This document shows, in pieces, positions 793 through 52,390 of a DNA stretch of 64,000 nt (position 1 is its first letter; every line of letters begins with the position of its first letter). Below the pieces are notes generated by a model. The model searched no databases. It had not been told where the DNA came from and worked only from the letters and a program-made list of their open reading frames with translations. A program made the position numbers and the translations under genes. This DNA is from Naegleria gruberi. Taxonomy: Eukaryota. The stretch is from NCBI GenBank assembly GCA_000004985.1, contig GG738919.1. One strand, given 5' to 3'.

Positions 793-1038
793 AGAATATA
801 TTGATGAACTCACATTAACATTGTAACCTATGCAATTTCAAGGAGAAACACAAATTCAATCTGATTTCAGGAGAACTTGCAATCTATTTTTAATTCACAA
901 AAACTTAAAAAAAATCCAAAACCTCGAGCAAGAAGGAATTTATTTTCAATTTGCTTTTAAAAACTCTAAGAGACCGGAGATAATATTATCCAATAATATT
1001 ATTTATTTTAATAATTGTTAAATAATAATAATAACACT

Positions 1039-9251: not shown

Positions 9252-10247
9252 NNNNNNNNNNNNNNNNNNNNNNNNNNNNNNNNNNNNNNNNNNNNNNNNN
9301 NNNNNNNNNNNNNNNNNNNNNNNNNNNNNNNNNNNNNNNNNNNNNNNNNNNNNNNNNNNNNNNNNNNNNNNNNNNNNNNNNNNNNNNNNNNNNNNNNNNN
9401 NNNNNNNNNNNNNNNNNNNNNNNNNNNNNNNNNNNNNNNNNNNNNNNNNNNNNNNNNNNNNNNNNNNNNNNNNNNNNNNNNNNNNNNNNNNNNNNNNNNN
9501 NNNNNNNNNNNNNNNNNNNNNNNNNNNNNNNNNNNNNNNNNNNNNNNNNNNNNNNNNNNNNNNNNNNNNNNNNNNNNNNNNNNNNNNNNNNNNNNNNNNN
9601 NNNNNNNNNNNNNNNNNNNNNNNNNNNNNNNNNNNNNNNNNNNNNNNNNNNNNNNNNNNNNNNNNNNNNNNNNNNNNNNNNNNNNNNNNNNNNNNNNNNN
9701 NNNNNNNNNNNNNNNNNNNNNNNNNNNNNNNNNNNNNNNNNNNNNNNNNNNNNNNNNNNNNNNNNNNNNNNNNNNNNNNNNNNNNNNNNNNNNNNNNNNN
9801 NNNNNNNNNNNNNNNNNNNNNNNNNNNNNNNNNNNNNNNNNNNNNNNNNNNNNNNNNNNNNNNNNNNNNNNNNNNNNNNNNNNNNNNNNNNNNNNNNNNN
9901 NNNNNNNNNNNNNNNNNNNNNNNNNNNNNNNNNNNNNNNNNNNNNNNNNNNNNNNNNNNNNNNNNNNNNNNNNNNNNNNNNNNNNNNNNNNNNNNNNNNN
10001 NNNNNNNNNNNNNNNNNNNNNNNNNNNNNNNNNNNNNNNNNNNNNNNNNNNNNNNNNNNNNNNNNNNNNNNNNNNNNNNNNNNNNNNNNNNNNNNNNNNN
10101 NNNNNNNNNNNNNNNNNNNNNNNNNNNNNNNNNNNNNNNNNNNNNNNNNNNNNNNNNNNNNNNNNNNNNNNNNNNNNNNNNNNNNNNNNNNNNNNNNNNN
10201 NNNNNNNNNNNNNNNNNNNNNNNNNNNNNNNNNNNNNNNNNNNNNNN
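9252..10247. other. assembly gap (N run, 996 nt)
   Basis: Uninterrupted n characters. Confidence 0.99.
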
Positions 10248-10910
10248 AGTGGGGGAACAACCAGCGTTGGTAGTTTGGCAACTAAAACTGTACTGAATGC
10301 ACCTTCAAAAATTGTCATTAACTCTAACAATGAGGTAATCTTTTCAGACTCTTTACACGGTAGAGTTCTTAAAATTGGTTTAGATGGTATTATTAGTGGA
10401 GTTGGAAATAGTTTTCGTATGCCCATTGGTATAGCATTAGGTTCCGATGGTGAAATGTATATTGCTGATACGAGCATTTTTGCAATACTTAAAATTGACA
10501 AGAAAGGAGTGCTTTCAACTATTGTAACTGGATTGGAATCTCCACGTGGCATTACATTAGATTCAAAGGGTAATATTTATGTCACAGATTTATATGTTAT
10601 ACATAAAATAACACCAGGTCAACAACCATCTCCCTATAAATCCACTCAACCTGATACTTCAATGAAACCAACTCAGCCTGATACTTCAATGAACCCAACT
10701 CCTGGAATATCAAGCAAACCAACTCCTGGAATATCAACCAAACCAACTCCTGGAATATCAAGCAACCCAACCCCAGGTCTCTCATTAAAACCAGCCCAGT
10801 CAATGAATGTTCCTACACCAAAAAATAGTGAAAGAGTTTCAGAAGCTCTTTCAGTTGTATCTGGTTGGCTTTTTACTTTTATAATCTTTATTTCAGTTTT
10901 CCAATTTTAG
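10248..10910 (+). CDS. NHL-repeat (six-bladed beta-propeller type) surface protein, C-terminal part: NHL repeats, then a Pro/Thr-rich tandem-repeat stalk, then a hydrophobic C-terminal tail (GPI-anchor or TM-like); N-terminus lies in the gap
   Basis: Frame is open from the gap edge. NHL-like motifs GEMYIADTS and SPRGITLDSKGNIYVTD. Repeats KPTQPDTSM x2 and PTPGISSKPTPGISTKPTPGISSNPTPG. Final 20 residues are hydrophobic (VVSGWLFTFIIFISVFQF). Stop at 10908-10910. Confidence 0.55.
   Translation, partial: SGGTTSVGSLATKTVLNAPSKIVINSNNEVIFSDSLHGRVLKIGLDGIISGVGNSFRMPIGIALGSDGEMYIADTSIFAILKIDKKGVLSTIVTGLESPRGITLDSKGNIYVTDLYVIHKITPGQQPSPYKSTQPDTSMKPTQPDTSMNPTPGISSKPTPGISTKPTPGISSNPTPGLSLKPAQSMNVPTPKNSERVSEALSVVSGWLFTFIIFISVFQF
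10642..10772 (+). repeat. in-frame coding tandem repeats: 27-nt unit x2, then 24-nt unit x3
   Basis: ccaactcagcctgatacttcaatgaa(a/c) repeated twice, then ccaactcctggaatatcaa(g/c)caaa repeated three times. These encode the PT-rich stalk of the NHL protein. Confidence 0.7.
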
Positions 10911-13711: not shown

Positions 13712-14845
13712 TTAGAAACACTTTCTGTGGACAATACCTGGGCCGGCATCCTCATATTCTTCCTTTGTGATCCACATTTGTTGGAAAGTGGACAATGAAG
13801 CCAAGATGGAACCACCAATCCAGACAGAGTACTTTCTTTCTGGTGGAGCAACAACCTTAATCTTCATAGAGGCTGGAGCCATAGCAGTCAATTCCTTGGT
13901 CATTCTTTCAGCAATACCTTCGAACATAGTAGTACCACCAGACAAGACAACGTTACCGTACAAGTCCTTTCTGATATCAATATCACATTTACCAATAGAG
14001 TTGAAAGTAGTTTCATGAACACCAGCAGCTTCCATACCAATGAAGTTTGGTTGGAACAAAACTTCTGGACATCTGAATCTTTCGTTACCAACAGTAATAA
14101 CATTACCGTCTGGCAATTCGTATGACTTTTCAACAGATGATGATTCAGCAGCAACCTTCATTTCAGCTTCAAAGTCCAAAGCAATATAACAGAGCTTTTC
14201 CTTGATATCTCTGACGATTTCTCTTTCAGCAGTTGTGTTGAATGAGTAACCTCTTTCCATCAAAATCTTCATCAAGTAATCAGTCAAATCACGACCAGCC
14301 AAATCCAATCTCAAGATGGCGTGTGGCAAAGCATAACCTTCATAAATTGGAACAGTGTGGGAGACACCATCACCAGAGTCCAAAACGATACCAGTAGTTC
14401 TACCAGAAGCATACAAGGACAAGACAGCTTGAATAGCAACATACATAGCTGGAACTGAGAAAGTTTCAAACATAATTTGAGTCATCTTTTCTCTGTTAGC
14501 CTTTGGATTCAAAGGAGCTTCAGTCAACAAGACTGGGTGTTCTTCTGGAGCAACTCTCAATTCATTGTAGAAAGTGTGATGCCAGATCTTTTCCATATCG
14601 TCCCAATTGGTAACAATACCGTGTTCAATTGGATACTTCAAAGTCAAGATACCTCTCTTAGATTGAGCTTCATCACCAACATAGGCATCCTTGTTACCCA
14701 TACCAACCATGATGGACTTTTGCTTTGGTCTACCAATAATTGAAGGGAAGACAGCTCTTGGAGCATCATCACCAGCAAAACCAGCTTTACACATACCAGA
14801 ACCGTTGTCAACAACGAGGGCTTGAACGTCTTCACAGAAGGACAT
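13712..14845 (-). CDS. actin, 377 aa, intronless, divergent paralogue
   Basis: Full-length actin signature: [23 protein letters not shown]; [26 protein letters not shown]; [22 protein letters not shown]; C-terminal [13 protein letters not shown] at 14845-14843 in an aaaATG context. TAA stop at 13714-13712. The DFEAEM motif is Amoebozoa/protist-like. Unusual substitutions [15 protein letters not shown] and [12 protein letters not shown]. Confidence 0.95.
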
Positions 14846-15548
14846 TTTGAATTTTGAGTTTTTTTTGATTTGTGTGAAATGATGTTTTTTAATGTTTGAT
14901 GGTTTTATTGGATTTTTGAGTGACGTGTTGCGTTATGGGAACGTCAAGTTGAAAGTCATCAATCAACAGATGGTCAACTTGAAGCTTACAAAAAGTATGA
15001 TGTGAAACTGGTTGACGGGTACTGAAGGATCGAAATTGTTATTGTAAAAATCTTTCAGCGCTTTTCACGACCTCTTTCTGATTGTGGATTCGAAACCTTT
15101 CCAACGTACCTAACGAGTTGTTCACATGCTGCTCCTACATATTGAGGTGGATCGATTTTAGATATTTGCTTCTAGACGAAATTGCTTTGCATCAAAATAA
15201 CAAACAATATCAACTTTATATTAATTGTAGATGATGAAATTGTGCAATATTACAATAAGCAAAAAAAATGATTTCTCTTTATCATTGGGATGTTTTCACC
15301 AAACTTTTCAATAGTGTATAATTGATGAATTGATGAAATTGTCTTCCGATAATTAATTGGATATTTAAATCCATCTCCGAATAATGTGGCTTATTGGAGT
15401 CATTTAAAAGAAAATTTGATAAATGTGTATTCAGAATACAGTCAATGGAGCCATTATTACCTTCACCTCTAAATCCAACCAATTATTCGATGATCAAATC
15501 AGATGATCAACTTATTAATACAAATATTATATACAAACAACAAATAAA

Positions 15549-17694
15549 ATGAGTGAATCAACATCTTCATCAGCACATAACATCTTCCCAATCATTTCTC
15601 CACTCGATAAGCAAAGTTTTGCCAATAATCATCAAGTGGTGGCTCATCACTATTACATGGATCTCACCACTGATTTTAAAAACAAAATTCTTGTTGGTTA
15701 TGTTGATGTTACTTTTGAGGCTTTGATTGATCGTCCGAGTCATGTTGTTGTTGATGCTCGTAATTTGGTTATTAAACAAACTAAATTCCTCTACAAGAAG
15801 CATCATAAACACTCTGAGGATAATATTAATGAACAACAACATCAAGAACATGAACTTGCTTTCCGAGTCTTCTCCAAGAGTGAAGTAGCACAAAATGGTT
15901 ATCCATCAGTTTATGGTGAACCTCTTTCTATGAGTCTTACTCATGAAGCTGTTGATTTGGAGGCTGGAAACTTTTTCGTGGTTAGAATTTTCTATGAAAC
16001 TACTCATGAGAGTGAAGCTATTCAATGGTTGGAACCAGAACAAACTCTCGGAAAGGTTCATCCATACTTGTTTACTCAATGTCAAGTAGGTTTTTTAATT
16101 TCTATCAAATCTAACCATCCATGTAATTCAATGAAAATCACACAATCATCAACTATTATATTATTATTATTGGAAATGTATTAAATTAATAATTACTGGA
16201 AAATAATATTAACATTAATCGGATAATTACAATAATTATTTTCATCATGATAGGCTATTCATGCTCGTTCTCTCCTTCCATGTCAAGATACTCCATCCAA
16301 CAAGATTACATACTCATCAACCATTAGAACACCAAAGCCACTCGTAGCTGCCATGTCTGCCATTAAACAATGGGAAGATGTCTCCACTCATATTAACATT
16401 TATCACTTTAAACAAAATGTCACAATTCCATCCTATTTGATTGCTTTGGTTGTTGGTGCTTTAGAAAGTAAGGAGATTGGACCAAGAAGTACTCTCTATT
16501 GTGAAGCTGAAGTTTTGGAAGCTGCTGCTTATGAATTCTCTGAAACAGAAGCTTTCATTAAGGCTGCTGAAGAATTCTTGCCACCTTATGCTTGGGGTAG
16601 ATACGATATTGTCCTCTTGCCAAGTTCTTATCCATTCGGTGGTATGGAAAATAGTAATCTCACTTTCCTCACTCCAACATTGCTTGCTGGAGACAGAAGT
16701 TTAGCGTAAGTAATTCTTTATACTTTCCATTAATAATCTAATGATCCTTAGTAATGTTGTTGCTCACGAAATTGCTCACTCCTGGTCTGGTAATTTGATT
16801 ACCAATTCCACTTGGGAAGATTTTTGGTTAAATGAAGGTTTTACTGTATTTATTGAAAGAAGAATTCTTGCTAGATTATCTGGTGAAGAATATGCCAAAT
16901 TCCATGCTCAAATGGGTTACAGTCATTTGGTTTCATCAATCAATCATTATAAGGAAATTAATGAATTGCAATATACCAAGATGATTCCACTTTTGGAAAA
17001 GTGTGATCCTGATGATGCCTTCTCTTCAGTTCCATATGAAAAGGGATTCAACTTTTTATATTATTTGGCTGATCAAATTGTTGGATCCATTCCAAGATTT
17101 GAAAAGTTCTTGTATCATTACTTTACTGTCTTTTGTCAAAAGACTGTTAACAGTGCCGAAATGAAGAAGTGCTTCTTGGAATATTTCGCTGATGTTGAAA
17201 AGACTAAGGAAATTGATTGGGATTCTTGGTTCAATGTTGAAGGTGATTTGATTGTCAAGAATAACTTTGAAAATACTTTGAACGTTGCTGCTAATGCTTT
17301 GTGTGAAAAGTGGACAAGTGGTGCTGAAGGAACATTCGCTAAGAGTGATATTGAAGGATGGTCATCAACTCAACTCACATACTTCCTCGATATTCTCTTG
17401 AGTAATGACAAGCCATTGAATGTTCAAAAATTGGATGAAACCTATGAATACTCTAAATACACTAACAGTGAAATTAGATTTGGTTGGCAAATGCTTGCTA
17501 TCAAACACAAATACGAACCAGTCAAGCCTCAAGTTGTTGCATTCATTACAATGCAAGGTAGAATGAAATATGTCAGACCACTCTATCGTGAGCTCTTCAA
17601 ATTTGATGCTGAATTGGCCAGAAGTACTTTCCAACAATACAAGGGATTCTACCACGGTATTGCCAGAAAGATGATTGAAAAGGATTTACAATAA
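15549..17694 (+). CDS. leukotriene A4 hydrolase / M1-family zinc aminopeptidase, ~643 aa, 3 exons
   Basis: Exons 15549-16085, 16254-16705, 16752-17694. Introns 16086-16253 (168 nt, gtaggt..tag) and 16706-16751 (46 nt, gtaagt..tag). The spliced product aligns collinearly with LTA4H (from memory): FTQCQ|[14 protein letters not shown] and SL|[19 protein letters not shown]. Zinc site HEIAH...[10 protein letters not shown]-terminal domain ...[13 protein letters not shown]. Confidence 0.9.
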
Positions 17695-17905: not shown

Positions 17906-19443
17906 ATGAAATCACAACAGCAATCGCTCAGTTTCGAACAGTTAACAAGTCTCTATGACTTTCCCTTCGAAGCAATCTTTGATGTTCCCGAAGCTAAAGA
18001 AGAATTTCGATTATTTCTCAAGAAGGAACATAATGAAGATCCCTTTCTCTTCTTTCAAGAAACTGAAGAATTCAAGAGATTAAAATTCGAAGAAAACAAA
18101 GCCAAGAAGGCCATCACATTATTCGAAAGGTTTATTCTACCGAATAGTCGACAAGAAATTAACATTTCAAGTCAGCAACGACAAGATATCATTCATAGCT
18201 TTTCAGATGTTTCTCAATTATTAGATGAGAAACATTTACTAGTGAATGACAATGTTTTTGATCAAGTTCAATTGAGTGTTTTTTGTAATTTGAAAAGTGA
18301 CAATTATCCAAGATTTACAATGAGTGAACAATTTAAAAAGTTTTTAAAAGATAAGGATTGGGAATTTATTTCATTAATTGCTGTCAAGAAATCAACCAAG
18401 TATATGGAATATATTCCAAAATTTGATGGATTAGTGACAGATAGAGATATTACCTTCTTATCATTTATGGCTTTTAGTAAGGAAACTGATGTTTGGGATG
18501 AAATCAAAGTGGGTAAGTTTCTTTTCCCAAAATATTCTAATCCCTATTCGAAACTAAAGATGACTCTCGAGCTTGCTACATCTCCAAAAAGGAATTCCAA
18601 TTCAATGAAAAATCCAATCAATCCACCGGTAAACTCTTCAAACAAGTTTTCATCCTACCAGCCACCAAAGAGCAATCATTTTCAGTTTTTTCACACACTC
18701 CACTCCGTAAGGAAATTATGGGCATTGATGGCATGAATCAAATTGATTACATTCCAATTTCAAAGAGTAACAAGTATGCACATTCACTCGTTCATTTATA
18801 TGTGAATATGAGGGAATTGTCGTGGATTTTGAAACCTAGAGATGTGGTTTTGGCTGTAACTTGTGTTTTTGATAGGAAGAGGGATTGTTTGGTGATTGCT
18901 AAAAAGTCAACTGAGACAGTGTTGATGCCAGAGAAGAAGAGTCATGTTAGGGCACAAATGTTAACTAGTGGATTTTTTTGTGATTGTTCTCCAAATGAAA
19001 AGATTGTGTCAGTTAAAAAGTCAAATGACAAACAGTCAACTGGGAGCTCACAACTTGATAGGAAGAATTCCAATGCATCATCACTTTCTTCATCAGTATC
19101 TACAGCTAGCTCATCAACTTTAAGCTGTTCACCAAATATCAGTCAAAATGGTCAAGAAACCTATACGAAACTAACCCTTCTCTTCTTTGTCGATATCAAA
19201 ACTTTGGATTCAGATTTCATCAAGAAGAAAATTGTTTCCAAGAAGAACAAACTTACCCACCAAGCATTTCTTCGGTCTATTCGAGAACAGCGAGAATTTG
19301 GATTTAAAAGACCAAAATTTTCGGAAGGATTATTGGAAACTTTTGACGAATTTAAATCAACTTATTTATCTGAAACAAATCCTGTAGAATTGTCGTGGGA
19401 TTTGGAAGAGGAGAATGTTTTGAATCATCCATTATTGAATTAA
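17906..19443 (+). CDS. RGS-domain protein, ~492 aa, probable 2 exons
   Basis: ATG 17906 (MKSQQQ...). An RGS fold signature occupies the first ~150 residues: FEAIFDVPEAKEEFRLFLKKEHNEDPFLFFQETEEFKR...KAKKAITLFERFI. Exon 1 is 17906-18706. Putative intron 18707-18765 (59 nt, gtaagg..aaag) joins in frame to ORF 18766-19443. The join is not homology-supported. Confidence 0.55.
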
Positions 19444-19602: not shown

Positions 19603-22003
19603 ATGTCACACATCCACCTGCCAAACATCACTGCAGCAAAAAACATTTCCAAAAACAAATTTGACAAATCAAATCTCTTCCAAACAATACAACAAAAAAT
19701 GGGTCAAAAACTAAAACCCATTTCACGAGTTTCTTCTTCATATCCCGATCACTTGGAACCAATCTACACAGTTTCACAATCAATTCTTGGACAAAATTCA
19801 ACACTCCAACAATTTCATTATAAATTAAACGATCAACAATGTAGAATGTTATTGAAAAAGTTTATTCAGAATCATTTTGGTTTCTCCTTGTTGTTTCCAA
19901 CATTTTCGGATGAATTATTCGAAAGTACTTGGGCCTTGGATAATTTGTTGAAACAGACGAGTGCGAATAGGATGATGTTGGTTTATGCGAATGAATTGTA
20001 TGTTTTGAATAATTATTCGAAACAAAATCGGGTGAATGGTGGATTGGCCGCAATTGATGAATTCTTCATTCCAATACAATTTACGAGAAACCAATTTAAA
20101 AAATGTTTAGAAAATGTTTCGAATAATGATCATGAAAGGAAACCAAGTCATTCAGAGATGAAGAACATTCCACTACTTTCGAATATTTATGAAAAGACCT
20201 TGTTATTGGAATGGAATTTGAAATGGACTATAAATGATAAAGAAACAAACGTTACCATATTGAAAACTGTGCCATTGTGGATTGGTGCTATGAGATTACG
20301 AGAATTCATCAAATCAAATTTGGAAATTCAGAAATTATTTGATGGTAATTTCAAATTGACTTTTCCAAACATGGAATTTAAAAATTTGAACGAATCCAAA
20401 TTGGTTTCTAGTATGAGCTCCATGTTTTCTATAATATTCGAGTTGTTTATAATGTATATTTCATGTCCCTTGTTGGTATTGAGTTGGGTTGCTGGCACAG
20501 AATCGAGACACATTCAGGAATTGTTTGATGATCATCATATTGGAACGATTCCACTCTTCACATGTTGTGAGTTGTTCGTACAGAGAATGATTGGTGTATT
20601 GGATTCAAAGAATGAGTTTGGAAAGGATTTGTTGCAATATTTTGGATTATTGAAAAGTTTGGGACAACATGGAATTGGAGCAGAGTGGAAAGATTCCTAT
20701 CGGTTAATGTTTGAGAATTGGAGGAGTGATATGGTGAGCTTGTTGGATCAGCCAACAATTATCCAATTGTTCAAACCGTTTTCAATCAGCTCACTTTCAA
20801 CAGAGATGGACTTTATTGAAATTTATTTGAGCGGAAATTCATTGCTTTCTCTTCCAAAGGTTTTCATTTCGGAGAGATGTAGGGATTTAAAGCTGGATTC
20901 CCTGTTTAATATTCAGGAGAACAAGTGGGAGGTGAAGGATGTGAAAAATTCGAAAATTATCCTAAACTTGGTTTCTTTTTGGATTGGATTGGAATTGTTG
21001 GACGATAAAAATTTACAGGACTTGCTGAAAATATCCTCCAAGTTGGGTGATAAGGAATTTTCAAAGCAATTGACTTCATTGATGGCAAGGCGAGTGACTG
21101 ATTCGAATAGTTACAAATTCTTCAAGATTGCTCAAGATTTCAAAATTACTTCTCTCACGGATTTGTGCAATTTATTCACTCAACTCGAAAAGTACAAGAA
21201 AGAACACACAAACAATACCAACCAGAGAAGAAGATCTTTGGCTGTTGTTCTAAAAAGAAATCCAAGTGAGAGTAATCTTGCTGATTCTCCATTTCAGTTT
21301 ACAAAACTCTCCTATCATGATGGATCAGAGTTGCAATTGGCGTTTTCACAGGCCACTTCAAAGGAAGCATCTTCACAGACGCAACAGAAGGAGGATGTGA
21401 CCTCAATCATTGCAAGTGGAGATAGGGAGAGTATTTCATCTCATATTGGAGTTTGGATTTGTGGAGGAGATCACCCAGGAAAGACCAGTTTAATATCCAC
21501 TTACATGTTCGGTCAGTTCGATGCTACTGCCTACGATACGAGCATTAATGAGAGTTATCGAAAAGTGGAGGGAAATTATGTTATTGATTTGAAGGATTCA
21601 TCAAGTAGAAACTTGGAGGAGGAGAAAATCAACAAGTCATTCATTGGAAAGTCAGATATTTTCATTATTTGCTATTCAGTCAAGAATTTGAATAGTTTCA
21701 AAATGGCAAGGTGAGTAATTCATTTCTTATTTGAATTTCATCTGAAATATATTTCTGATAAAATTCAGAGATTACATTGATTATATCAAAACCATCAAAA
21801 CTAATCCAATTCTCCTAATTGCAGCACTTCAATGCGATTCACCAAAGAGCATTTGGAAAGTTACAACACAAGACGGCTTGAAATTGGCCAACGACTATGA
21901 TGATGCTCAATTCTTTGAAATATCGAGCTATTTGGGAATTAATGTTCGAGATATTTTCATGAGTGGAACGGTTCAATTGATAAAGAGATTAAATAATTGT
22001 TAA
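19603..22003 (+). CDS. large protein (~780 aa) with a C-terminal divergent Ras-like small-GTPase domain; 2 exons
   Basis: Exon 1 is 19603-21710, intron 21711-21768 (58 nt, gtgagt..cag), exon 2 is 21769-22003. Across the junction the sequence ...NSFKMAR|DYIDYIKTIKTNPILLIAALQCD lines up with the Ras switch-II-to-G4 region. G1 (GGDHPGKTS) and YDTSINESYRK (cf. YDPTIEDSYRK) are conserved. G3 (DxxGQ replaced by DLKDSS) and G4 (NKxD replaced by ALQCD) are degenerate. The N-terminal ~600 aa has no recognised domain. Confidence 0.6.
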
Positions 22004-22094: not shown

Positions 22095-22167
22095 GTACCC
22101 TTGGCTCAATTGGAAGAGCATCGGCCTACGGAGCCGGGGGTTGTGGGTTCGAGTCCCACAGGGTATA
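22095..22167 (+). tRNA. tRNA-Arg (anticodon ACG), 73 nt
   Basis: Cloverleaf read by eye. Acceptor GTACCCT/AGGGTAT with G1-U72 wobble. D arm GCTC/GAGC. Anticodon stem TCGGC/GCCGG with loop CTACGGA. T arm GTGGG-TTCGAGT-CCCAC. Discriminator A. Pol III terminator T6 follows at 22171-22176. Confidence 0.85.
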
Positions 22168-22348: not shown

Positions 22349-23233
22349 ATGCAGAAATTATACAACCTGCTAGTGATTACTTCAAGTTTAGGTGATGATT
22401 TTCATCGGGTTGCTCTGCAAAGATTTAGAGGATCGGCCTATTCAGAAATTTTCAATGAGGTGAGAGAGTTGGGATTGGAATCAGCCTCTCTAGATGTGAT
22501 GAGAGATAATATTAATAGTAGTGATGTTTTATGTTTTTGTCCGAATAGTACAATTAATCAAGAATTGGAGCCTTGGATAAATAGGAAGGTACATCAGGGT
22601 GATTTGTCTTTGATTTTTCTGAGAGGAATTGAAAACTTTTCGGCTCCTTATCAGTTAGGATATGTCAATAATTCATATGTAGATTGGGCAAATGCTAATT
22701 CATTTGCCTTGGATGTTTTACATGTAAAACAATTGAATAGCATTCACTTGAATAGATTTTTGCAAAAGTACAATGCCGAAACAAAATTATTCTATGAAAA
22801 TTCTGAAAAATTAATTTCAAAAGATCATACCGGAAAGGACGTCATTTCGCCTGTGGATTCTCACCTATTCAGCACATTTCATAAGATTAATCTTGATGGA
22901 AGTTATATTTGTGGAGAAACAAATTCTAAAGTTGTAGATTATGAAAAGAGTTGGACCACTTTGGCCTATTCAACAGGAGATACTGATCAAGTTCGAAGCT
23001 CTGTACTCATCCACAATCAGTATAAGGTGATGTTTCCTCACTTTTATGGTTTCAGTGAGGCAGATACAGAGTATAGTAAGGACCTTCTCAAGGCACTCAT
23101 TCAGTATTTATTGTTGGAACATGGTTCAAGACAAAAGAGCAGAACCACTTTATTCTTTTCAAGATTATTCAATGCGAGTAGGAATAATATTTACTCTGAT
23201 ATTTCAATATCAGCTCATGATTATTACAATTGA
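22349..23233 (+). CDS. hypothetical protein, 294 aa
   Basis: ATG at 22349 in an aaaaaaaaATG context. TGA stop at 23231-23233. No motif recognised. Confidence 0.5.
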   Translation: MQKLYNLLVITSSLGDDFHRVALQRFRGSAYSEIFNEVRELGLESASLDVMRDNINSSDVLCFCPNSTINQELEPWINRKVHQGDLSLIFLRGIENFSAPYQLGYVNNSYVDWANANSFALDVLHVKQLNSIHLNRFLQKYNAETKLFYENSEKLISKDHTGKDVISPVDSHLFSTFHKINLDGSYICGETNSKVVDYEKSWTTLAYSTGDTDQVRSSVLIHNQYKVMFPHFYGFSEADTEYSKDLLKALIQYLLLEHGSRQKSRTTLFFSRLFNASRNNIYSDISISAHDYYN

Positions 23234-23289: not shown

Positions 23290-24228
23290 ATGCATCATTC
23301 AGGAGTAACTTTCGAACGGAAAAAAATGGCCAAGGATAATCATAATGATGTAGCCGTGATCTCTGCATCATCTGTTTCCAGCAGCAACAGTAGTACTATC
23401 AACAGCAAGGAAAAGTCAACATCAACACCCAATCATCACGATGGTGTGAAGGATTTAATTACACTATTTGTAATGGTTGTGGTTATTTCAATTTCACAAT
23501 ACTTGGTCGGAACTTATTTGCAGTTTAATAATTTCAGCATGGAAATGTATTTTGCTTTGACATTTGTGGGTATTTTCACATTGGTTGGTGGATTTGAATT
23601 GTATTTCAAGGTAGGTGTTACTTGATTGTCAAAAAACAAATGGATAACACTTGATAACTGTTTTGATTTGTGAATGGGACAACAGACACAAAGAATTGTC
23701 ATTTCGAATTATCAATCAAAGAAGGACTATATTATTGCTCATAGTTTTATTGATGATTTAATACCATTCATTCCACACAGTATTTATTTGTACACATTTG
23801 GAGATTTGTTTATCATGTCGTGTCTAATTCCAACCTCTCCTAATTTGGAAACAATTATTAGAATTTTCTTTGGAATGTTGGTCGTTTGTGTGATGCAATG
23901 TTTGGTTTTCCTTATATTCCCATCAACAATTCCAGATAACTATAGACATGCAATTGATGAATATCAAACCAAGTATGGAAAGATTGATTCTTATACTTAT
24001 TCATTCTATAAGAAAATGTATGGAGTTGATTTGCATGCTAATGCCATTCCTTCTGGACATTGCTCAATTGCTACTTATTTGGCAATGACTCAGTGGAACG
24101 TTCTTGGACCAATTACATTGCTAAATCCTTTGTTAATTGCCATTAGTTGTGTCTGTACAAAACAACATGCTGCTTTGGACACTATTGTTGGTATTTTGTT
24201 TGGATTATTAATTTATAGCGTTGTTTAA
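23290..24228 (+). CDS. PAP2-superfamily (lipid phosphatase / phosphotransferase-like) multipass membrane protein, 2 exons
   Basis: Possible starts at 23290 or 23326 (aaaaaaATGG). Exon 1 ends 23610, intron 23611-23685 (75 nt, gtaggt..aacag), exon 2 is 23686-24228. PAP2 motifs PSGH and CTKQHAALD (SRxxxxxHxxxD-like). Several TM helices. Confidence 0.6.
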
Positions 24229-24375: not shown

Positions 24376-25808
24376 TTACAATTTTTCTCTCTTCCAGTTG
24401 CAGTTTTCAATGATAGTGGCAACAGCAGCACCGTGACCAATACACATACTTTGCAAACCATAACGCTTATTAGTTCTTTCCAATTCATTGACCAATTTAG
24501 TCATCAAAATAGCACCAGTAGCACCAAGAGGGTGACCCATAGCAATAGCACCACCATTTGGATTCAATTTGCTATCTGGAACATTGAAAGTCTTCTTCCA
24601 GGCCAAAACAACACTGGCAAATGCTTCATTAATTTCAAAAACATCAATATCATCAATTGACAATCCAGACTTTTCCAAAGCCTTTCTAGTTGCTGGAATG
24701 ACACCATCCAACATCATGACTGGATCACAACCAATTGAAATTCTAGTGACAACACGAGCTCTTGGCTTGAGTCCCAATTGTTTAACCTTTTCACCAGAAC
24801 ACAACAAGACAGCAGCAGCACCATCAGAAATTTGAGAAGCATTAGCAGCACTGATAACACCATCACGTTTAAAGACTGGCTTCAATTTGGAGAGTTTTTC
24901 AGTATCAACTGGATAACGAATACCTTCGTCATGCTTGAACCAAGTTTCAGTTTCTCCCTTCTTAACCTTAATTGGCAAAATTTGTGAATTATAAATACCC
25001 TTCTTTGAAGATTCGTATGCTTTACGATGTGATTCAACAGAGAATTCATCAATTTCCTTCTTTGAAATCTTGTAATGTTCAGCAATCAATTCAGCACTAA
25101 CACCTTGATGCAACAATTTATATGGAAATTTACCAAACTTCAATTCCTTTGGAGTGGCAGAAATTTGGAATAATTCTGGATCACAATCACTTCCCATAGG
25201 AACAACAGACATCATTTCAACACCACAAGCAACAATCATATCAACATCTCCAGAGGCAATAGCTTGAGCTCCGAAATGAACAGCTTGTTGGGAAGAACCA
25301 CACATACGATTCAATTGAACTCCAGGGACATGAACTGGATATCCAGCCTTCAAGAGAGCCAAACGTGGAAGATTGGCACCTTGTTCCTTGACAGGTGTAA
25401 CAATACCACAAATAACATCTAAATACGATCGAAATTAATCATCATCACCACACATTATAATAATTTCATAATAATATCAATATTTCATCATCATCATTAG
25501 CAATTATTAATAATAACAACAAAAGGAGAGAAATGGAATGAGAATTAATAGTCCGTATATATCAAAGATGATGAAAAGAGTTCATTCGAATTGAAAGAAC
25601 AATATAAAACAAACATACCTTCAACTTCAGCCTTGTTTACATTACATCTAGAGGTAACACTATCCAAAACATAGGATAACAAGGAGACTGGATGTATATC
25701 GTGCAAAGATCCTGTATTTCTACCCAATCCGATTGGTGTTCTAATACAATCGACAATATATACATCTCTTCCACAGGTATTTCCGGCAGTTTCGTTCATG
25801 CTCAACAT
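24376..25808 (-). CDS. acetyl-CoA C-acyltransferase (thiolase), ~410 aa, 2 exons
   Basis: Exon 1 is 25808-25619, intron 25618-25419 (200 nt, GTATGT..TTTAG on the minus strand), exon 2 is 25418-24376. Junction ...KAEVE|DVICGIVTPVKEQGANLPR. Thiolase signatures NRMCGSSQQAV, GVEMMS, and C-terminal GHPLGATG...CIGHGAAVA. Confidence 0.9.
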
Positions 25809-30029: not shown

Positions 30030-30232
30030 TTTCTTGTGTTTTAGTTAAGATTAGAGTTTTGTTATTTGTTTTGAATTGGAGTGTGATGGAATGCAATTGA
30101 AGTGGTATTTATTCAGATGTGAAGATAGAATTAGTCCTTTCTTATCACGGGTGCACAATTTGTTTACAAAACTTATATCGGAACCTGTTTTGATCTTTCA
30201 ACTGTTGAAAAAAATTTGATTACATTGGCAAA

Positions 30233-30321
30233 AGGCGACTGAGGGAATTGAACCCTCGACCCTCAGTTATCTCGGCATTTCTGCCTACAAGACTGATGCA
30301 CTGCCACTGTGCTAAGCCGCC
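30233..30321 (-). tRNA. intron-containing tRNA, anticodon UGU (tRNA-Thr by anticodon), 17-nt intron after position 37
   Basis: Minus-strand read: GGCGGCT-TA-GCAC-AGTGGCA-GTGC-A-TCAGT-CTTGTA-[GGCAGAAATGCCGAGAT]-A-ACTGA-GGGTC-GAGGG-TTCAATT-CCCTC-AGTCGCC-T. All four stems pair perfectly once the 17-nt insert at the canonical 37/38 site is removed. TTTT follows on the minus strand. A Tyr(GUA) reading was tested and fails to pair. Confidence 0.7.
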
Positions 30322-30666
30322 TTACGATGGAAATAAAAAATAATAATTAATAAATTTGATTGGTAATGTGAGGAACCCAGTTCACTATTTAAAAGCTTTA
30401 TTCAGCATTATATATCTGGAAAAATTAGAAAGAGTGAGCTCAAAGATACATGATACATGATCGAGATTGAAATGAATGCTCAAGACAAGAAATTAATTAC
30501 AAGAAAATTATCACGAACTAAAACAGTACATAATGTAGGACATTGAATATTTCATGCGATCGCACCCAATCGGGATTTTTTATGTACTACATGCGCGGCC
30601 TTTAATTTGTAATCAATTTCTCTCTGAACAATTTTCATCGAACAAAATCATCAAAAACAAAAAAAA

Positions 30667-32018
30667 ATGGCCAAAGACACAAAGAAGGCAGTCGAAGATC
30701 TTGCAGAGGGAAAATCATCCTTGTGTTCACTCATCACCCGAACACTCCTTTCCCTGATCGCCGCTCTCATTCTCTTTTATCAAGTAAATTCCCTTACTAA
30801 ATCGCCACCTCCTAAAGTTTCCGATTTTTATCAAGATAAGCCATCCAAGTTGAATTATAATTTCCCATCGAGATTGATTAAAACAAATGGAATTTCCTTG
30901 AATGTAATTACTATGGGAAGAGAGGAAAATTTTGATGAAAATTATAGTGGAGAGAAGGATCCATTGATTATTTATCTTCATGGTAGGTTTAATAATTTAT
31001 TATTTGTGGATCATTGTTTAAATATTATATTGTGTGATGATTCTATGTTAAAATTGTTATAGGTTTCCCACAAGCTGCTGCTACTGTAAGTTTCAAGAAA
31101 CTTGAAGAATTTTCATACGAATTTTAATCTCAGTGTTGGACCTATCAATTGCAAGATTTTGCCAAGAGAAACTTTAAGTATGGAGAAAAGAGATTTGCAT
31201 TGATGGCACCTGATCTTCGTGGTTATAATACTAGTGACAAGCCAGATATTACAGATTTAAATAATTATGATATGGGTGAACTAGTTCATGATATTAAAGG
31301 ATTGATTGAAGGATATTACAAGAATGGAAAAGGAAAGGCTGTCCTTGTTGCTCACGATTGGGGTGCAATTATTTCATGGGTTTTGACATCTACTTATCCA
31401 GAAGTTGTTGAAAAGTTAATTGTTCTCAATGTTCCTCATCCAGTTTCAATGCAAAGAGAAATTGGTCAATTGCCACTCAAAACCATTTATGCTCAATTGA
31501 AGAAGAGTTGGTATATCTTGTTCATGCAACTTGGATTTTCAATTCCAGAAAATTATTTCAAGAATGATAATTACAGAGCCCTTGCATTTGCCTATTTGGA
31601 TTTGGCCAAGAAGGGTATTTTGACAATGGAAGATTATCATCACTATGTAAAGGGATGGGCTCAACCAGATGCTTTGGATGCAATGATGGCCTACTATAAG
31701 GGATTCATGACTGGAAAGTTTGCTAATGCTATCAAGATGAAATTGGGTTATCCAGATGCAAGACGTTATCCAAAAGTTGGACAAACATTGGAAGCACCTC
31801 TTGAACAACAAAAGGTTAAGGTTCCAACTCTTATTTTGTGGGGTAAGGATGATCTTGCCCTTATAGAAGAAACTGCTGATTTGAGCTTTAAGTATTACAT
31901 TGATGAAAGCGTTAAACCAAAGTCTAAAATTATCAAATTTGAAGCTGGACACTTTATTGCATTGGAAATTCCAAACACTGTCATTCAAGAAATTGAACAA
32001 TTTGTTACTCAACAATAA
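30667..32018 (+). CDS. membrane-anchored epoxide hydrolase-like alpha/beta hydrolase, ~407 aa, 3 exons including a 23-nt micro-exon
   Basis: Exons 30667-30982, 31063-31085 (23 nt), 31134-32018. Introns 30983-31062 (80 nt, gtaggt..tatag) and 31086-31133 (48 nt, gtaagt..ctcag). The spliced product gives IIYLHGFPQAAATCWTYQLQ...RFALMAPDLRGYNTSDKP, which matches the epoxide-hydrolase HGFPExWYSWRYQ...DxRGYG region. Nucleophile motif LVAHDWGAI. N-terminal TM anchor TRTLLSLIAALILFYQV. Confidence 0.8.
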
Positions 32019-32180: not shown

Positions 32181-34377
32181 TTAAGCATAAAATAACATCT
32201 TTTCCCATTCTTTCGATTCATTCAGTGAGGTCAAGCTTCCACATCTATATCCTCCTCTGCCAGTCAAATGCCATGAAATTTTATCTTTGCCTTCTGAAAG
32301 ATCAGCAGTACCTAGTTGAACTAGAGACGATCCAGAGAAACCAAATGAGTGATTCTTCCAGTGATAAAAGAAACATCCATTCTCCTTAGTGGTTTCATTT
32401 TCAAATGTTTCTCTCAAAACCTTTTGCTTCATACCCATAGCACAAAGTGCCAAAGCAGAAGAATTCTTGTGACGAGCGCCTATCAGAATACGAGTTCCTT
32501 TGATAGCTTGAATATCTGCTTCACTAGTTGGGTGATGGTATGGTTTGTGATAGTAGAGACACCAACCTTTCAGCTTACTAATTGGTACATCAGTACAAAC
32601 ACCGCTGACATAGAAAAGAGAACCTTCTCTGACTTTGAGACGAGCTGAATTGAACAAGTCAACTCTGTTTTGAAGTGAGTGAGCTCTGTAAGCTTCAAGT
32701 AATAATTCACTTGGGACAACCTTTGAAATTTCCACAAATTCATACAATTCAATAGGATCCAAAGTTGGGAATCTAACATTATGTAAAATATCGTACAATA
32801 GTTTGGCCAATTGTTGGCAGAAACTCTTATCGTGTGTATAATTGACAATCTTGAGAATTCTTTCCTTCTTTTGCTTCAATTCATCTGCATCTTGTTTGCG
32901 AGAGGCAGAAGGATTGGTTAACATAATTTCAGGATTGAGTGTACTATATGCTAAGGTGTCAACTTCCTCTTCATATTCATCATCTTCATCCACAACATCC
33001 TTATCTGTTTCATCATCATCGTCATGTTTTGGATTGAGTTCAGAAATTGATAATTCTGGACTTGGTTGTGGAGCTTTCTGTTCTGAAATTGAAAGATTTC
33101 TCTCAGTCAAACTCTCTGTCAGCCCAGATTTCTTCAAATGATCTGGAAGATTTTCCTTCGAAAGTACCTTACTAGAACCATCCATTCCATAAGAGATGAC
33201 AGTCTTAGTTGGAGTTGAAGTACTTCCAACACTATTCTGATGACCTGAAGCAACATGTGTCTGTACAGTAATTTGATTTGCACCTGATTTTGGTGAAACA
33301 ATTTGCACACCCATTCTGTGAATTAATTGATGTTTTCCCCAAATAACGACAGCAATGAAAATATCCAATTCACCCAAGTGAATCTTGTCAGATTTTAACA
33401 AGTCAATCAGGGTTTCCTTTGTAATGTTTAAAAAGCTTTCCGAGAAGAACATTTGATTTGCATTTTCTTCCAAATATTCTTTACAGTACTTTCTCAATTC
33501 TAATAGTTTAGGATAAACGTCAATGACAAAAATACATACCATCAAAGTTATGGAATGATGATTCTTCCAAAACATCAAATACATTATCGGCTGATACACA
33601 ATCCTTCACATATTCAATACATTTCTCCTTCACTATTTGTACACCCAACTCATCACTCAATTTCAAAACACCAAATGCATTAAAATGATTAATATTAATC
33701 ACAGCTGAATAAAAGAAATCCAACAAGCACTTGAAATCATCTGGTCTCTTATCTGGAAACTTTAAATAACCCTGCATACAGTCTTTCATTTGTGAGTGGA
33801 ATAGTTTACTGAAATATTCACAACGAGCACATAAAATAGCTCTGTGTACTTTAAATTCCACAACAGAGCAGTCATCTGATGGATAATACTTGTTTTTAAA
33901 CTTGTCAGAGCTATTAGTTGTCTTGTAAGGTTTATCCTCTTCCATACTTCCAATCAATTTTGAAGGACCCACAACAATTGTCAAATCGGACATTATTTCC
34001 GATTCGAATAGTTTCATAATATCTTGTCTATATTGTTGTAAAAGTAATAAATCAAAAGAAGGATCCTTCTGTGTGGTCGATGAATTTGGTTTCCCAATAG
34101 AAATAGTTCTACTTCTAGCTGATGATGCTGATGAAGTTCCTGTGGTCAATCCAGTAACTCCCAACTTGGGAACAGCAGTTGTTGGTGTGGTGACACTTGT
34201 TGTTGCAGTCACTACTATTGAAGTAGCACCACTTGCAGAGGCAGCTGTACTTGCGAGAGTAGATGATGCTGAAGTTGTAGTAGGAGTCAATGTTGAGGAT
34301 GGTGTTGTTACAGTGCTGGGAGTCGATGATGATGATGAGGAAGTAACAGCAGTAGTGGAGGCGCTTGGAAGAGTCAT
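32181..34377 (-). CDS. BTB/POZ-BACK domain protein, ~718 aa, with Ser/Thr-rich N-terminus; 2 exons
   Basis: Exon 1 is 34377-33540, intron 33539-33500 (40 nt, GTATGT...CTATTAG), exon 2 is 33499-32181. BTB core DLTIVVGP...EFKVHRAILCARCEYFSKLF. Junction ...SSFHNFD|ELRKYCKEYLEENANQMFF (BACK-like). The unspliced reading hits a stop after FDGMYFCH. Confidence 0.75.
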
Positions 34378-34756: not shown

Positions 34757-35952
34757 TTAAACTTTGAATAATTGCAGCTTGTTATTGGGAAGAAGTGTTT
34801 GCCAGTGACTCAGGAATTGAAGTAGAGTTTTTGAACCATGTTTGAAGAGGTAGGAAATGAGGGAGTGGAGTGTATCATGATCGGAGGAGAGTAGTTTCTT
34901 TGTAATTTGAATCATTACAAAGTTAGTCCAAGAATTCGACAATTCGGCAAGTAAGAGTATGAGATAATGAGAAAGATTGCAGTCGAGGAGACTAATCTCA
35001 CCTGTATCGAAAATTCTACTGACATACTTGGATTGTTGTTTCCAATTTGAAAGAATGTTTGGTAATTCCTCAAGAAGGAGATTTGAAAATGTGTCCAAAT
35101 GTTGGGAAGAAAGGTCAGTGATGGAAAGAATCAATGTTTCCAATCCTCTACTATTGCTTGCCACAATTTTACATAAACGTTTGAAAAATTTGGAAATTCC
35201 AGAGCTGTACATTTCTGACAGTATTTCTAATTGTGAAGTAATTAATTTCACCTGGACAAAGGAGACATGTCTACATTTCACACAATATTCCAAAGAACTT
35301 GTATAGTAATTGGTGTTCACCTCTAGTAAAGGAAAATTATCTACATGTGAAACTGCATTAGAAAATAATTGAGAGAATTGACATTCCTTCTCAAACATCT
35401 GTTCCAAGTAGTTATCCAATATTCCAAACTATTTAAACTACTCACATCAGTAATCATATTCAAAATATTCACAATTGGAGGCTCATCCGATTTCTCCTCA
35501 TCAAAATTAATTTCTGTCTCTTCCTCTGCCCCTTCTGTATTAAAATCATCATCAGTTGCTGTTGTATCCTCATCCTCTTCTTGTTCATCATCTTCCATCA
35601 AATAATCAAAAGCAGTCTTCTCAGTCACTCCTGTTGTCTCTTTCGATTGTTGCAACATTGTCAATTGTAAGTTCATCCAATCCTGTATAATTCTCGTATA
35701 TAATGCATAATCCTCTTGTTTTCCACTAAACATTGAATTTCCAACATGACGAAAACAACTCGTCAGAAACAACTCTGTTAATCCAACAAGATTGCTCTTA
35801 ATATTCAATAAATTCTTCAACAATTTTACTCTATTCAAATCCTCCAAATAATCCACAGCACTTTCCCTCTCATCAAATTTCCTACACCAATCCAAAGCCA
35901 ATTCATAATCTAATTCCGAAGAAGGCTTGTTTCCATTCGTCGGAACGAACAC
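34757..35952 (-). CDS. hypothetical acidic protein, 2 exons; 5' end unresolved
   Basis: Exon 35952-35446 and exon 35398-34757 are joined by a 47-nt intron 35445-35399 (GTGAGT...GGAACAG) that converts frame A into frame B exactly. Asp/Glu-rich segment DDEQEEDEDTTATDDDFNTEGAEEETE. There is no ATG at the 5' end of the open frame; see the frame-disruption finding. Confidence 0.5.
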
Positions 35953-36653
35953 ACTATTTACAAACCTTTAATATTCTTCCCTCTGAAAGATTTTAATGGA
36001 ATGGTACTTTGCATGAGAATTCCTTCCAATTGTTGAGTGGTTTCTTCCTCTTCATCAAGTTGCAACATTTTTTTTTTAATTTTTAATTTTATTTCCACTT
36101 TTAATCAGAAAATGATTTTGTAAAAATTGTTGAGAGTTGTATTCCAACAGTTGATTGTAAAGACCCAATGCATTTTTCAATCAATAATGGACCTTTACAA
36201 ATGGCCAATTCATCCAAATCTTTTCATTTTTGACTCTTGATCAGAGAAATCAAAACTAGATTTGTCTCTTTTTGTATTTTACATCATCTCTTGCTTTCAT
36301 ATTCCAAACACCAAATCAATTCTCTAAAAATCCCAATAGATCATGGATTTCGCAAAACTCCTCATTCTCAATCTACCTTTTCGAAATCATTCTTCTCCAA
36401 TCGCTTCCTTATGCAGTACCTTTTATGATGTTTTGTGGTGCGGATTCTTTCTTACTACCACCAACACTTTGCGCCAACAAACAACCTTTCATCATTAAAA
36501 AAAAAACAAATACAATCGTCGCTTATTTTTCTGCAACACACAACTTTGAGGAGAGAAATCATATTTCAAGGGTTTGAGAAAACGCATCATCTATTGTTCT
36601 TTTATTTAAAAAAAGTTCACGTTTAGACAGTATTGTGGAAAAAGAGATAGAAA

Positions 36654-50323: not shown

Positions 50324-52390
50324 ATGCTCTCACATACAGCCAAGATTTTCCGTCATTCAAGAAGGGTTTGCAATAAATCGGCCCTCTCATGTGTTGCCAC
50401 TTCATCATCATCGGCAATGCTCGGAATGAAGAATATTCCGACAACAACATTTCAAAATCAATTCCTTGTTGAAAATATCAAGAATTTTAGTACACAATTA
50501 AATGTTAGAAATCAACAACAAGAACAACCACTTGATGAATCAGCCTTGAGTCAACATATTTTCCAATTTATTCAACAACAATCTGCTAATCTTCCTTTGC
50601 AAAATTTTGCTGATTTGGACAAGTTACTTCAAACATTGATTTTCCAAGGACATCTCATCTTTAGAGCACAAACTATGGAAGAATGGAAACCTGTTTATTA
50701 TGAAATTTTGAATATTCTCTCTAGCAATTCTACTATTTTTGCTGATATTGACCAAACTCAATTGTCTCAAGTGGAAAAGGATGTTAATGAATTTGCTGAT
50801 GCTATCATTAGTACATTTGAAAAGTATGCTACTTCTGGTGGATTGGAGAATAAGGTTGTTGGTGATGTTTTGAGGTAGGTTTGAAATAGTTCAAATTTAT
50901 TCATCTATTTGTTTAATGATTGAACTATTTCATGTATATAGAATGTTGGCTGAAGATGTCATTGTTTCATCACTCCCAACTGTTAAATTTGCTCCAAATG
51001 GAGCTCATGCTCAATATGTTCAACATGTTGCTGACCAAATGGGAGATTATGTTGAAATGACTAATTTACCTCAAATCAAGGTCATTCTTCTCACTAGAAA
51101 GGCTTTAGGTTTGCACAAGCTTGGAGCTTTGGATAAGGCTTTGGAAACTTGTGATAAGGCTATTGAAATTATGCCAGATTTCTCCCCAAGTTATCTGTAA
51201 GTATTGTGAATTTGAAAAGTGAAATATTGAAAGACATTAGTGTTCGTGCCTCCACTTTCTTATTCATGGAAAAACCACAAGAATCCATTGAAGCTTGTAA
51301 CAAGACCCTCTCAATTGAAGAAGGAAATATGGAAGCCTATTTGTGTAGAGCTGTTTCCTACCTCAAATTGGGTGATACTGAAAAGGCACTTACTGACCTT
51401 AACACTTTGTTGGAAGCTCATCCATCCCGTTTCGATGCCTTGACCAAGAGAGCTGCCATCTATTTCTCCAAAAAGATGTACGACAGTGCCATTCTCGATG
51501 TTGAAAGAGCCATCTACTATAATTCCAACGATGTTCAAGTTTTCACTGATGTTGTCATGAGTTTCGATTGTGCCTCTGATAAGTGTGCTGAACAAATCAT
51601 TGTAGGTCTCTTCAATAAGACTCGTAATCAAATTGCTGATGCAGTTAAAGCATTCGATGAAGCTATTAAGGTCAATCCTGATGATGCTGTCTCATATCAT
51701 CAAAGAGGTCTCTTGCAATACAATTATATGGGTGATTCTAAGGCTGCTCTCGAAGATCTCCAACAAGCTATCGATAAGAGAAGTTCATTGACCTCTGAAA
51801 CATACACTGGTATTTTACTCCAAGATTATGCCATGATTGTTCTCAATATGTTCGTTGCTGAATATAAGGATAAGGCACCAGATGGAAATGTTCCAACCTT
51901 TGAAACTTCTCCAGCTTTGGCCACTGCTTACAGTTGTTTTGCTGAATCTACTACTAAAATGCCAGCTCCAGCTCAATTGAAGGCCATTACAAGTATGGGT
52001 AGTATTCACATTCTCATGAATGAAAATGAACAAGGTATCGAATTGTTCACTAAGGCTATTGAAGTTGCCAAGCCAAAGACTGCCAGTGGATACACTCCAG
52101 AATTGAGAAGTGAAATGGCTGCTGCTTACTTTAACAGAGCTCACGTCTATCACATGAAGATTATCAATAATGAATTGGCTCTCAAAGACTATGACATGGC
52201 CATCAAGTTGAATCCAAACAATCCATTGTTCTATCACTATCGTTCCATGCTCCACATCCACATGGGTAATGATGAATTGGCCAAGAAGGATGAAGATACT
52301 GCCAAGAAGATTACTGAAAGACAACAAGAAAGAATCAAACAAATGCAAAAATTGCAACAAGAAAGCAGTCCAGAACAACCAACCCTCTAA
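50324..52390 (+). CDS. tetratricopeptide-repeat protein with presequence-like N-terminus, ~651 aa, 3 exons
   Basis: Exons 50324-50874, 50942-51196, 51241-52390. Introns 50875-50941 (67 nt, gtaggt..tatag) and 51197-51240 (44 nt, gtaagt..cattag). The second junction restores the TPR register: ...PDFSPSYL|VRASTFLF..., cf. P...AYYNRG. N-terminus MLSHTAKIFRHSRRVCNKSALSC is Arg-rich with no acidic residues. Confidence 0.75.

Follow-up and report, generated by a model that had tools for sequence, protein, structure and literature searches.

The window analysed here is a stretch of 64,000 nucleotides from contig GG738919.1 of the Naegleria gruberi assembly (GCA_000004985.1). It is AT-rich (about 34% GC), and assembly gaps occupy positions 2254-6871 and 9252-10247. 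The ORF occupying 1015-2055 shares about 99% identity, across 339 residues, with the N. gruberi RNA ligase NgrRnl (PDB entry 5COT), from which it differs by two visible substitutions. The gene that is the subject of this report encodes a predicted epoxide hydrolase (EH), lies on the plus strand, and comprises three exons (30667-30982, 31063-31085, and 31134-32018). The spliced coding sequence extends from an ATG at 30667 to a TAA stop codon at 32016-32018, has a length of 1224 nt including the stop codon, and encodes 407 amino acids with no internal stop. The predicted exons and introns are as follows.

30667-30982, plus strand: EH exon 1, starting at the ATG and ending with base 1 of the HGFP Gly codon, including the N-terminal hydrophobic anchor.
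30983-31062, plus strand: EH intron 1, 80 nt, phase 1, GTAGGT...TTATAG, 20% GC.
31063-31085, plus strand: EH micro-exon, 23 nt, GTTTCCCACAAGCTGCTGCTACT.
31086-31133, plus strand: EH intron 2, 48 nt, phase 0, GTAAGT...TCTCAG, 27% GC.
31134-32018, plus strand: EH exon 3, from CWTYQ to the stop codon, including the AHDWG nucleophile motif, conserved Tyr residues, and the catalytic His.

These coordinates match exactly those of the initial annotation, which had proposed a 23-nt exon at 31063-31085 between introns of 80 and 48 nt. Exon 1 is an open frame with a positive coding score that can be aligned to the N-termini of the Naegleria lovaniensis and Willaertia orthologues, and its frame ends ...TATCTTCATG at 30982. 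The micro-exon contributes positions 2 and 3 of the Gly codon and then FPQAAAT, the core of the HGFP oxyanion-hole motif. It is internal, with an acceptor on one side and a donor on the other, and at 23 nt falls within the size of about 30 nt or less by which micro-exons are recognized. Both introns have GT at the 5' end and AG at the 3' end, and their extended donors correspond to the window consensus. At 8-14 nt ahead of the AG, the EH introns contain TTAAT- or TTAAA-like motifs, which are loose, YTRAY-like candidate branch points picked out by eye. Removal of both introns yields a continuous ORF homologous to uninterrupted relatives, and the doubly spliced junction is predicted to read ...TTCATG|GTTTCCCACAAGCTGCTGCTACT|TGTTGG.... 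JGI metagenome and metatranscriptome contigs contained no exact match to this junction, and a protein-pattern scan of the JGI contig collection found no relatives.

The spliced EH protein matches the Pfam families Abhydrolase_1 (6.5e-17) and Abhydrolase_6. Its best solved relative is the epoxide hydrolase of PDB entry 5NG7 (E=1.8e-42), with an alignment that is unbroken through LHGFPqaaatCWtYQ save for one single-residue gap. Identity to solved enzymes is only about 35-40%. In an alignment of 13 sequences, HGFP (residues 105-108, split over the junction of exon 1 and the micro-exon), the AHD188WG nucleophile elbow, Y240, Y301, D353, and H386 are invariant or nearly so. AHD188WG, D353, and H386 occupy invariant columns and are also aligned to 5NG7. 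Y240 and Y301 are invariant within the 13-sequence alignment and may correspond to the two ring-opening tyrosines expected of the cap domain. The protein shares HGFP, AHDWG, the putative cap tyrosines, and the C-terminal His with the α/β-hydrolase epoxide hydrolases, among them 5NG7, EPHX3/EPHX4-like enzymes, and the C-terminal domain of sEH. EPHX3 and EPHX4 have an N-terminal hydrophobic anchor, and a similar N-terminal hydrophobic stretch is common to the EH protein and its closest relatives. Homologs are annotated as "epoxide hydrolase 4", and the earlier suggestion of an EPHX3/4-like enzyme is reasonable on both counts. Judged from sequence, EPHX3/4-like epoxide hydrolase of the α/β-hydrolase fold is a fair label for the gene, and epoxide hydrolysis is its predicted activity. 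The EH protein differs from bacterial and solved epoxide hydrolases in having one extra residue between HGFP and the tryptophan of W.YQ, a feature common to the heterolobosean orthologues and a few metagenomic relatives.

The nuclear gene, which would encode a membrane-anchored epoxide hydrolase, very probably contains two ordinary U2-type GT-AG introns with predicted junctions. With only 23 nt between them, the internal exon that they define would bear most of the catalytic HGFP (HGXP, oxyanion-hole) motif.

The setting in which these introns occur was described by cataloging the introns of the whole window. Open segments of positive coding potential were joined via GT-AG introns and the joins were checked by Pfam continuity; the LTA4H model was additionally aligned to N. 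fowleri and Willaertia proteins. Beyond the two EH introns, the predicted features are listed below.

16086-16253, plus strand: LTA4H intron 1, 168 nt, GTAGGT..ATAG; Pfam Peptidase_M1_N continuous, orthologue alignment gap-free at FTQCQ|AIHARS.
16706-16751, plus strand: LTA4H intron 2, 46 nt, GTAAGT..TTAG; Pfam Peptidase_M1 continuous, orthologue alignment gap-free at SLA|NVVAHE.
18513-18559, plus strand: probable intron of the RGS-START gene, 47 nt, GTAAGT..AAAG; frame join.
21711-21768, plus strand: intron of the Ras-domain gene, 58 nt, GTGAGT..TCAG.
23611-23685, plus strand: intron of the PAP2-family gene, 75 nt, GTAGGT..ACAG; consensus donor, coding potential on both sides.
25419-25618, minus strand: thiolase intron, 200 nt, GTATGT..TTAG; Thiolase_N continuous over 1-259 of 260.
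33500-33539, minus strand: intron of the BTB-BACK gene, 40 nt, GTATGT..TTAG; BACK domain continuous.
35399-35445, minus strand: intron of gene 34757-35967, 47 nt, GTGAGT..ACAG; frame join, consensus donor.
50875-50941, plus strand: TPR gene intron 1, 67 nt, GTAGGT..ATAG; consensus donor, strong coding score on both sides.
51197-51240, plus strand: TPR gene intron 2, 44 nt, GTAAGT..TTAG; consensus donor, strong coding score on both sides.
53054-53109, plus strand: intron of the Sec8 gene, 56 nt, GTAAGG..ATAG; Sec8_N continuous over 33-140 of 142.
58562-58606, plus strand: probable intron of gene 56837-58918, 45 nt, GTAAGT..AAAG.
63893-63948, minus strand: first intron of the RCC1 gene, 56 nt, GTAAGT..ACAG; RCC1 repeats in the downstream exon.
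63949-63983, minus strand: first exon of the RCC1 gene, 35 nt.

The window holds 15 predicted introns of 40, 44, 45, 46, 47, 47, 48, 56, 56, 58, 67, 75, 80, 168, and 200 nt (median 56 nt). The same total had been given in the initial annotation, which placed 11 of them at 40-59 nt; this class has ten members here, and 11, 3, and 2 would sum to 16. Its three introns of 67-80 nt and two longer ones (thiolase, 200 nt; LTA4H, 168 nt) were reproduced independently, as were the 35-nt RCC1 first exon and the 47-nt intron at 35399-35445. All 15 donors conform to the proposed GT[AG][AGT]G[TG], while the proposed YAG acceptor holds for 13 of 15, the introns at 18513-18559 and 58562-58606 needing AAG. 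The hexamers found at the EH donors, GTAGGT and GTAAGT, start 10 of the 15 catalogued introns. On the plus strand of about 58 kb, GTA[AG]GT occurs 12 times and is an inferred donor in nine cases, both EH donors included; when only sense-strand occurrences within genes are counted, the proportion is 10 of 12. Within the window, GTA[AG]GT thus appears almost diagnostic of predicted introns.

Support for the individual joins varies. A Pfam match runs uninterrupted across the junction in six of the 13 non-EH introns (both in LTA4H, and those of the thiolase, BTB-BACK, Sec8, and Ras-domain genes), and two of these six, the LTA4H pair, are also backed by the orthologue alignment. The window LTA4H is 77% identical to that of N. 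fowleri. Splicing of the Ras-domain gene extends its Ras Pfam match from positions 4-90 to 4-156 of 162, and the BTB-BACK ORF is split likewise on a metagenome contig (L005, described below). The remaining non-EH introns rest on splice consensus and coding potential. The spliced PAP2-family ORF contains PAP2 domains; a 125-nt intron joining ORF 22349-23233 to this gene was rejected in favor of two separate genes, because PAP2 starts from a separate ATG at 23326, in the AAAAATGGCC context also seen at the EH start codon. The 47-nt RGS-START model keeps segment 18562-18685, whose coding score is positive (0.28 per codon); models of 149 or 173 nt with YAG acceptors were set aside on coding potential, which does not settle the choice. 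Gene 56837-58918 has a consensus donor 40 nt ahead of a stop codon and an open segment with coding potential downstream, and 60- and 75-nt variants of its intron are also in frame. Pfam support for the intron join was not found in gene 34757-35967.

The EH introns are short and AT-rich and have donors at or near GTAAGT/GTAGGT, for which splicing by intron definition is the most likely mode. Splice sites would then be paired across each short intron, so that the length of the intervening exon would not be limiting and the 23-nt exon would be included constitutively, with no requirement for an exon-definition signal. The two introns may be removed one after the other. This mode and order of splicing are suggested by what is generally known of short-intron genomes.

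Departures from double splicing have predictable consequences. Skipping of the micro-exon gives a frameshift, and retention of intron 1 introduces an in-frame stop, as does retention of intron 2 even though its length is a multiple of three. Either outcome yields an unproductive mRNA, such that only the doubly spliced form would give enzyme. Such an arrangement could in principle serve as a switch, with regulated skipping of the micro-exon or regulated retention of an intron turning the enzyme on and off through unproductive splicing, and both outcomes do give premature stops. Transcriptomes of N. gruberi do, in general, contain cases of exon skipping and of intron retention (PMC6142364). Both EH introns nonetheless have strong consensus donors, and the locus shows no sign of a conserved RNA structure or a regulatory element, making a regulated switch unlikely. 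The RNA secondary structure of the micro-exon region is not significant (z = -1.2), and a structure looping out the micro-exon was rejected on this value. Constitutive inclusion of the 23-nt exon would be the expected behavior if intron definition applies.

Micro-exons are familiar from animals and plants as internal exons of about 30 nt or less, for example the neuronal 3-27-nt exons and plant mini-exons. Like these, the EH micro-exon is a tiny coding exon that keeps the reading frame and encodes structurally important residues. Animal and plant micro-exons have long flanking introns, whereas those flanking the EH micro-exon are very short, so that special enhancers or activators are presumably dispensable for its inclusion. 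It also differs in showing no sign of tissue- or stage-specific regulation, and in not being conserved as an exon in sister species, where its codons lie in an uninterrupted ORF.

The closest full-length relatives of the EH protein are those of a second Naegleria species (56% identity), N. lovaniensis (55%), and Willaertia magna (44%). All three orthologous genes are uninterrupted (N. lovaniensis, locus L001, 3001-4203; second Naegleria, loci L003/L004; Willaertia, locus L002, 3001-4191), and at the site in question their DNA reads CAT GGA TTT CCA CAA AC. GC. ... TGG without a break. Their motifs (HGFPQTATTSW, HGFPQTATTAW, and HGFPQTAANSW, together HGFPQTA(T/A)(T/N)(S/A)W) have a spacing of eight residues between HG and W, and that of the spliced EH protein, HGFPQAAATCW, is equal in length. 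The spliced model HGFPQAAATCWTYQ agrees with the orthologues (HGFPQTATTSWYFQ), the extra residue included. Between HG and W, five of eight residues are identical to N. lovaniensis HGFPQTATTSW, the micro-exon-encoded FPQAAAT corresponding to orthologue FPQTATT. Comparison with orthologous epoxide hydrolases had been proposed as a check on the micro-exon, and the identical HG-to-W spacing in the closest of them answers it favorably. Frame logic, Pfam and PDB continuity, and this spacing all agree with the earlier claim that the micro-exon recovers HGFP...W.YQ in frame.

The micro-exon model was also ranked against its competitors. All stop-free, in-frame models of the region that remove either one GT-AG intron or two, each no shorter than 30 nt, were enumerated (n=396) and scored against the three orthologues. 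The micro-exon model ranks first, with a score of 143 against 122 for the runner-up, and is the only top-scoring model in which both donors fit the window consensus. Codon-usage scores per codon are +0.82 for the micro-exon and +0.51 for exon 3, and are negative for the flanking introns in their best frame.

The best rival among the shifted-site and single-intron models dispenses with the micro-exon altogether and posits a single 128-nt intron at 31006-31133 (GTGGAT...CAG), giving ...LHGRFNNLLFCWTYQ... in a protein of the same length. This model maintains the reading frame, contains no stops, and leaves the HG-to-W spacing intact, but fails on both homology and donor quality. It loses the near-invariant F and P of HGFP, replacing FPQAAAT with RFNNLLF, and matches none of the eight orthologue residues between HG and W, compared with five for the micro-exon model; its orthologue score is 105 versus 143. 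A GTGGAT donor is absent from all 15 catalogued introns, and the model passes over two consensus donors of a kind otherwise almost always used. The segment that it would read through has intron-like codon usage, and under this model one of the two haplotype substitutions would be non-synonymous (F>Y), where the accepted exons have five of five synonymous. A single intron at this position is therefore very improbable, and the two-intron structure with its predicted 23-nt exon is preferred.

Haplotype variation provides an independent view of the two-intron structure. The EH gene is borne at about 99% identity, and with the same structure, by two haplotypes of the same species, L005 and L006, which are independently assembled Illumina metagenome contigs from sample ERR1078381. 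Exact look-ups of other proteins encoded in the window, neighbors of the EH gene among them, matched contigs of this sample or nothing. The window differs from them at five positions in the 1201 nt of exons 1 and 3 (three in exon 1 and two in exon 3), all of which are synonymous third-position changes, and the micro-exon is free of differences across the three haplotypes. The introns have three substitutions, in addition to indels, over 128 nt. Two of the substitutions are in the 80 nt of intron 1; intron 2 has a C>T change at position -5, which leaves the acceptor as YAG, and a 2-nt deletion that is accompanied by a compensating 2-nt insertion in L005 only. The lengths of intron 2 over the three haplotypes are thus 48, 48, and 46 nt, the last in L006. 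A net change of 2 nt would be a frameshift in coding sequence and is tolerable only if the segment is untranslated. The contrast in polymorphism is a pattern of purifying selection such as typically separates exons from introns. On the matching metagenome contig, a prokaryotic gene caller split the EH gene into fragments of 131 and 271 amino acids.

That the gene is instead a decaying pseudogene or an assembly artefact, with insertions that resemble introns by chance, could be argued from the three other heterolobosean orthologues being uninterrupted at the site, but is scarcely credible given the same structure in two independently assembled metagenome contigs, a spliced ORF intact over 407 amino acids with all catalytic residues present, polymorphism concentrated in the introns and purely synonymous in the exons, and inserts that each have the consensus donor of this genome at the start and YAG at the end. 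There is little room for anything except two real introns and a real 23-nt exon, the junctions of which are predictions.

As all three orthologues lack both introns, the EH pair is, within the set of taxa compared, confined to the N. gruberi lineage. Gain would require two insertions on the N. gruberi branch; loss would require two events, each deleting the adjacent pair, one in Willaertia and one in the fowleri/lovaniensis ancestor. Both scenarios need two events, and neither direction is favored by event count. It is conceivable, at somewhat less than even odds, that the N. gruberi lineage recently acquired the two introns in separate events, each insertion falling within the catalytic motif that is the gene's most conserved. 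Such a difference is not exceptional. Elsewhere in the window, the two LTA4H introns occupy positions at which Willaertia has none; the Willaertia gene instead contains two others, one of which lies just six codons away from LTA4H intron 2 of the window. LTA4H is thus a case of free turnover of intron positions between Naegleria and Willaertia. By published estimates, N. gruberi shares no more than 30-50% of its intron positions with other supergroups (PMC3174169).

Two further origins were considered and rejected. Similarity of the EH introns to the window and to loci L001-L006 is at chance level, with matches of 15 nt or less, and an introner or repeat origin was dismissed for want of similar copies in these sequences. 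A nested intron (stwintron) was rejected because removal of the whole 151-nt block shifts the frame. The EH introns resemble introner- or transposon-derived introns and fungal stwintrons in their close spacing and lineage specificity. Introners are expected to have copies similar to each other, in contrast to the EH introns, which have no such similarity in the window or L001-L006.

The short introns of the window fit what has been published for Naegleria. The figure given for N. gruberi is 1.7 exons per gene, and read mapping in N. fowleri has used a minimum intron length of 30 nt (PMC8296547). The window introns are of the same kind as the short U2-type introns of Naegleria, GT..AG, with a GTAAGT-like donor, AT-rich, and 40-80 nt in length. 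The one discrepancy is in length, with a published N. gruberi mean of 203 bp against a window median of 56 nt; there is otherwise no qualitative difference, and the genome-wide mean must reflect a long tail or annotation. Sparse short introns being a published property of Naegleria, that part of the finding is correct and already known. The EH feature is a sound micro-exon structure and an ordinary instance of known phenomena, in a genome already known for short introns.

The current understanding of splicing is unchanged by the EH micro-exon, which matters chiefly for annotation. The remark in the initial annotation that exons of this size tend to escape gene predictors is plausible. Gene prediction or ORF calling that overlooks the 23-nt exon truncates or splits the enzyme, and a model without it loses HGFP, with the risk that the gene is wrongly taken for a pseudogene or for one encoding an inactive protein. 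The window motif GTA[AG]GT is usable as a prior for re-annotation. More broadly, the locus indicates that a Naegleria coding exon can be far below the length detectable by coding-potential methods. It could also mark the timing of intron gain or loss within Naegleria and, if the introns are indeed recent gains, would provide a clean, datable heterolobosean case in which a micro-exon was created by the gain of introns.

Two short and in other respects regular introns bear on the stringency of the acceptor signal. Both begin with a GTAAGT donor, and for both a short, in-frame closure is possible only with an AAG acceptor:

18513-18559, + strand, intron of the RGS-START gene
58562-58606, + strand, intron of gene 56837-58918

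The need for AAG at both sites suggests that the 3' splice site of this genome is not strictly YAG. At the donor side, GTAAGT and GTAGGT occur 7 and 5 times, respectively, on the + strand of the whole window and 6 and 5 times on the - strand, below the approximately 20 occurrences per hexamer per strand expected from base composition. When only the sense strand of the genes is considered, these hexamers are nearly restricted to intron starts (10 of 12). Their rarity and their confinement to intron starts fit a model in which cryptic donors within exons are selected against.

The LTA4H introns differ in position between the window species and Willaertia magna. One pair nearly coincides: the introns at 16706-16751 in the window and at 1449-1488 of the W. 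magna locus (L009) are separated by just six codons (SLA^NVVAHE^IAH), near the zinc-binding HEXXH motif. Intron sliding, or independent gain near this motif, is a possible explanation.

An environmental metagenome (sample ERR1078381, project PRJEB11402; contigs L005 and L006, and also L007 and L008) holds at least two haplotypes of an organism whose epoxide-hydrolase (EH), BTB-BACK, GST, and dehydrogenase genes share approximately 99% identity with those of the window. A 2-nt indel in EH intron 2 distinguishes the two haplotypes from one another.

ORF 1015-2055 (+), which contains Pfam RNA_ligase and PHA02142 OB-fold domains, is approximately 99% identical to the crystallised N. gruberi RNA ligase NgrRnl (PDB entry 5COT), and this match assigns the window to N. 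gruberi or a strain very near to it. The two visible substitutions, Glu for Asp and Val for Ala, suggest that the window and the crystallised protein come from different alleles or strains.

The start contexts of the PAP2-family gene (23326, AAAAAAATGGCCAAGG) and the EH gene (30667, AAAAAAAATGGCCAAAG) are nearly alike, and both genes encode proteins beginning MAKD. This similarity probably reflects merely an A-rich start-codon context.

Two tRNA genes were located:

22095-22167, + strand, tRNA-Arg(ACG) without an intron, immediately downstream of the Ras-domain gene
30232-30322, - strand, 91-nt tRNA gene (Rfam, 58.5 bits) between the GST and EH genes

The latter reads as tRNA-Thr(UGU) with an approximately 18-nt intron immediately 3' of the anticodon, which ARAGORN depicts as a long extra arm.

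In N. lovaniensis (L001), the genes that flank the EH orthologue encode an NHL-repeat protein and actin. Window genes with domains matching these neighbors precede the EH gene by approximately 16-20 kb:

10275-10910, + strand, and 13715-14932, - strand, genes with matching domains (NHL-repeat, actin)

Their location hints at a remnant of synteny that has undergone rearrangement.
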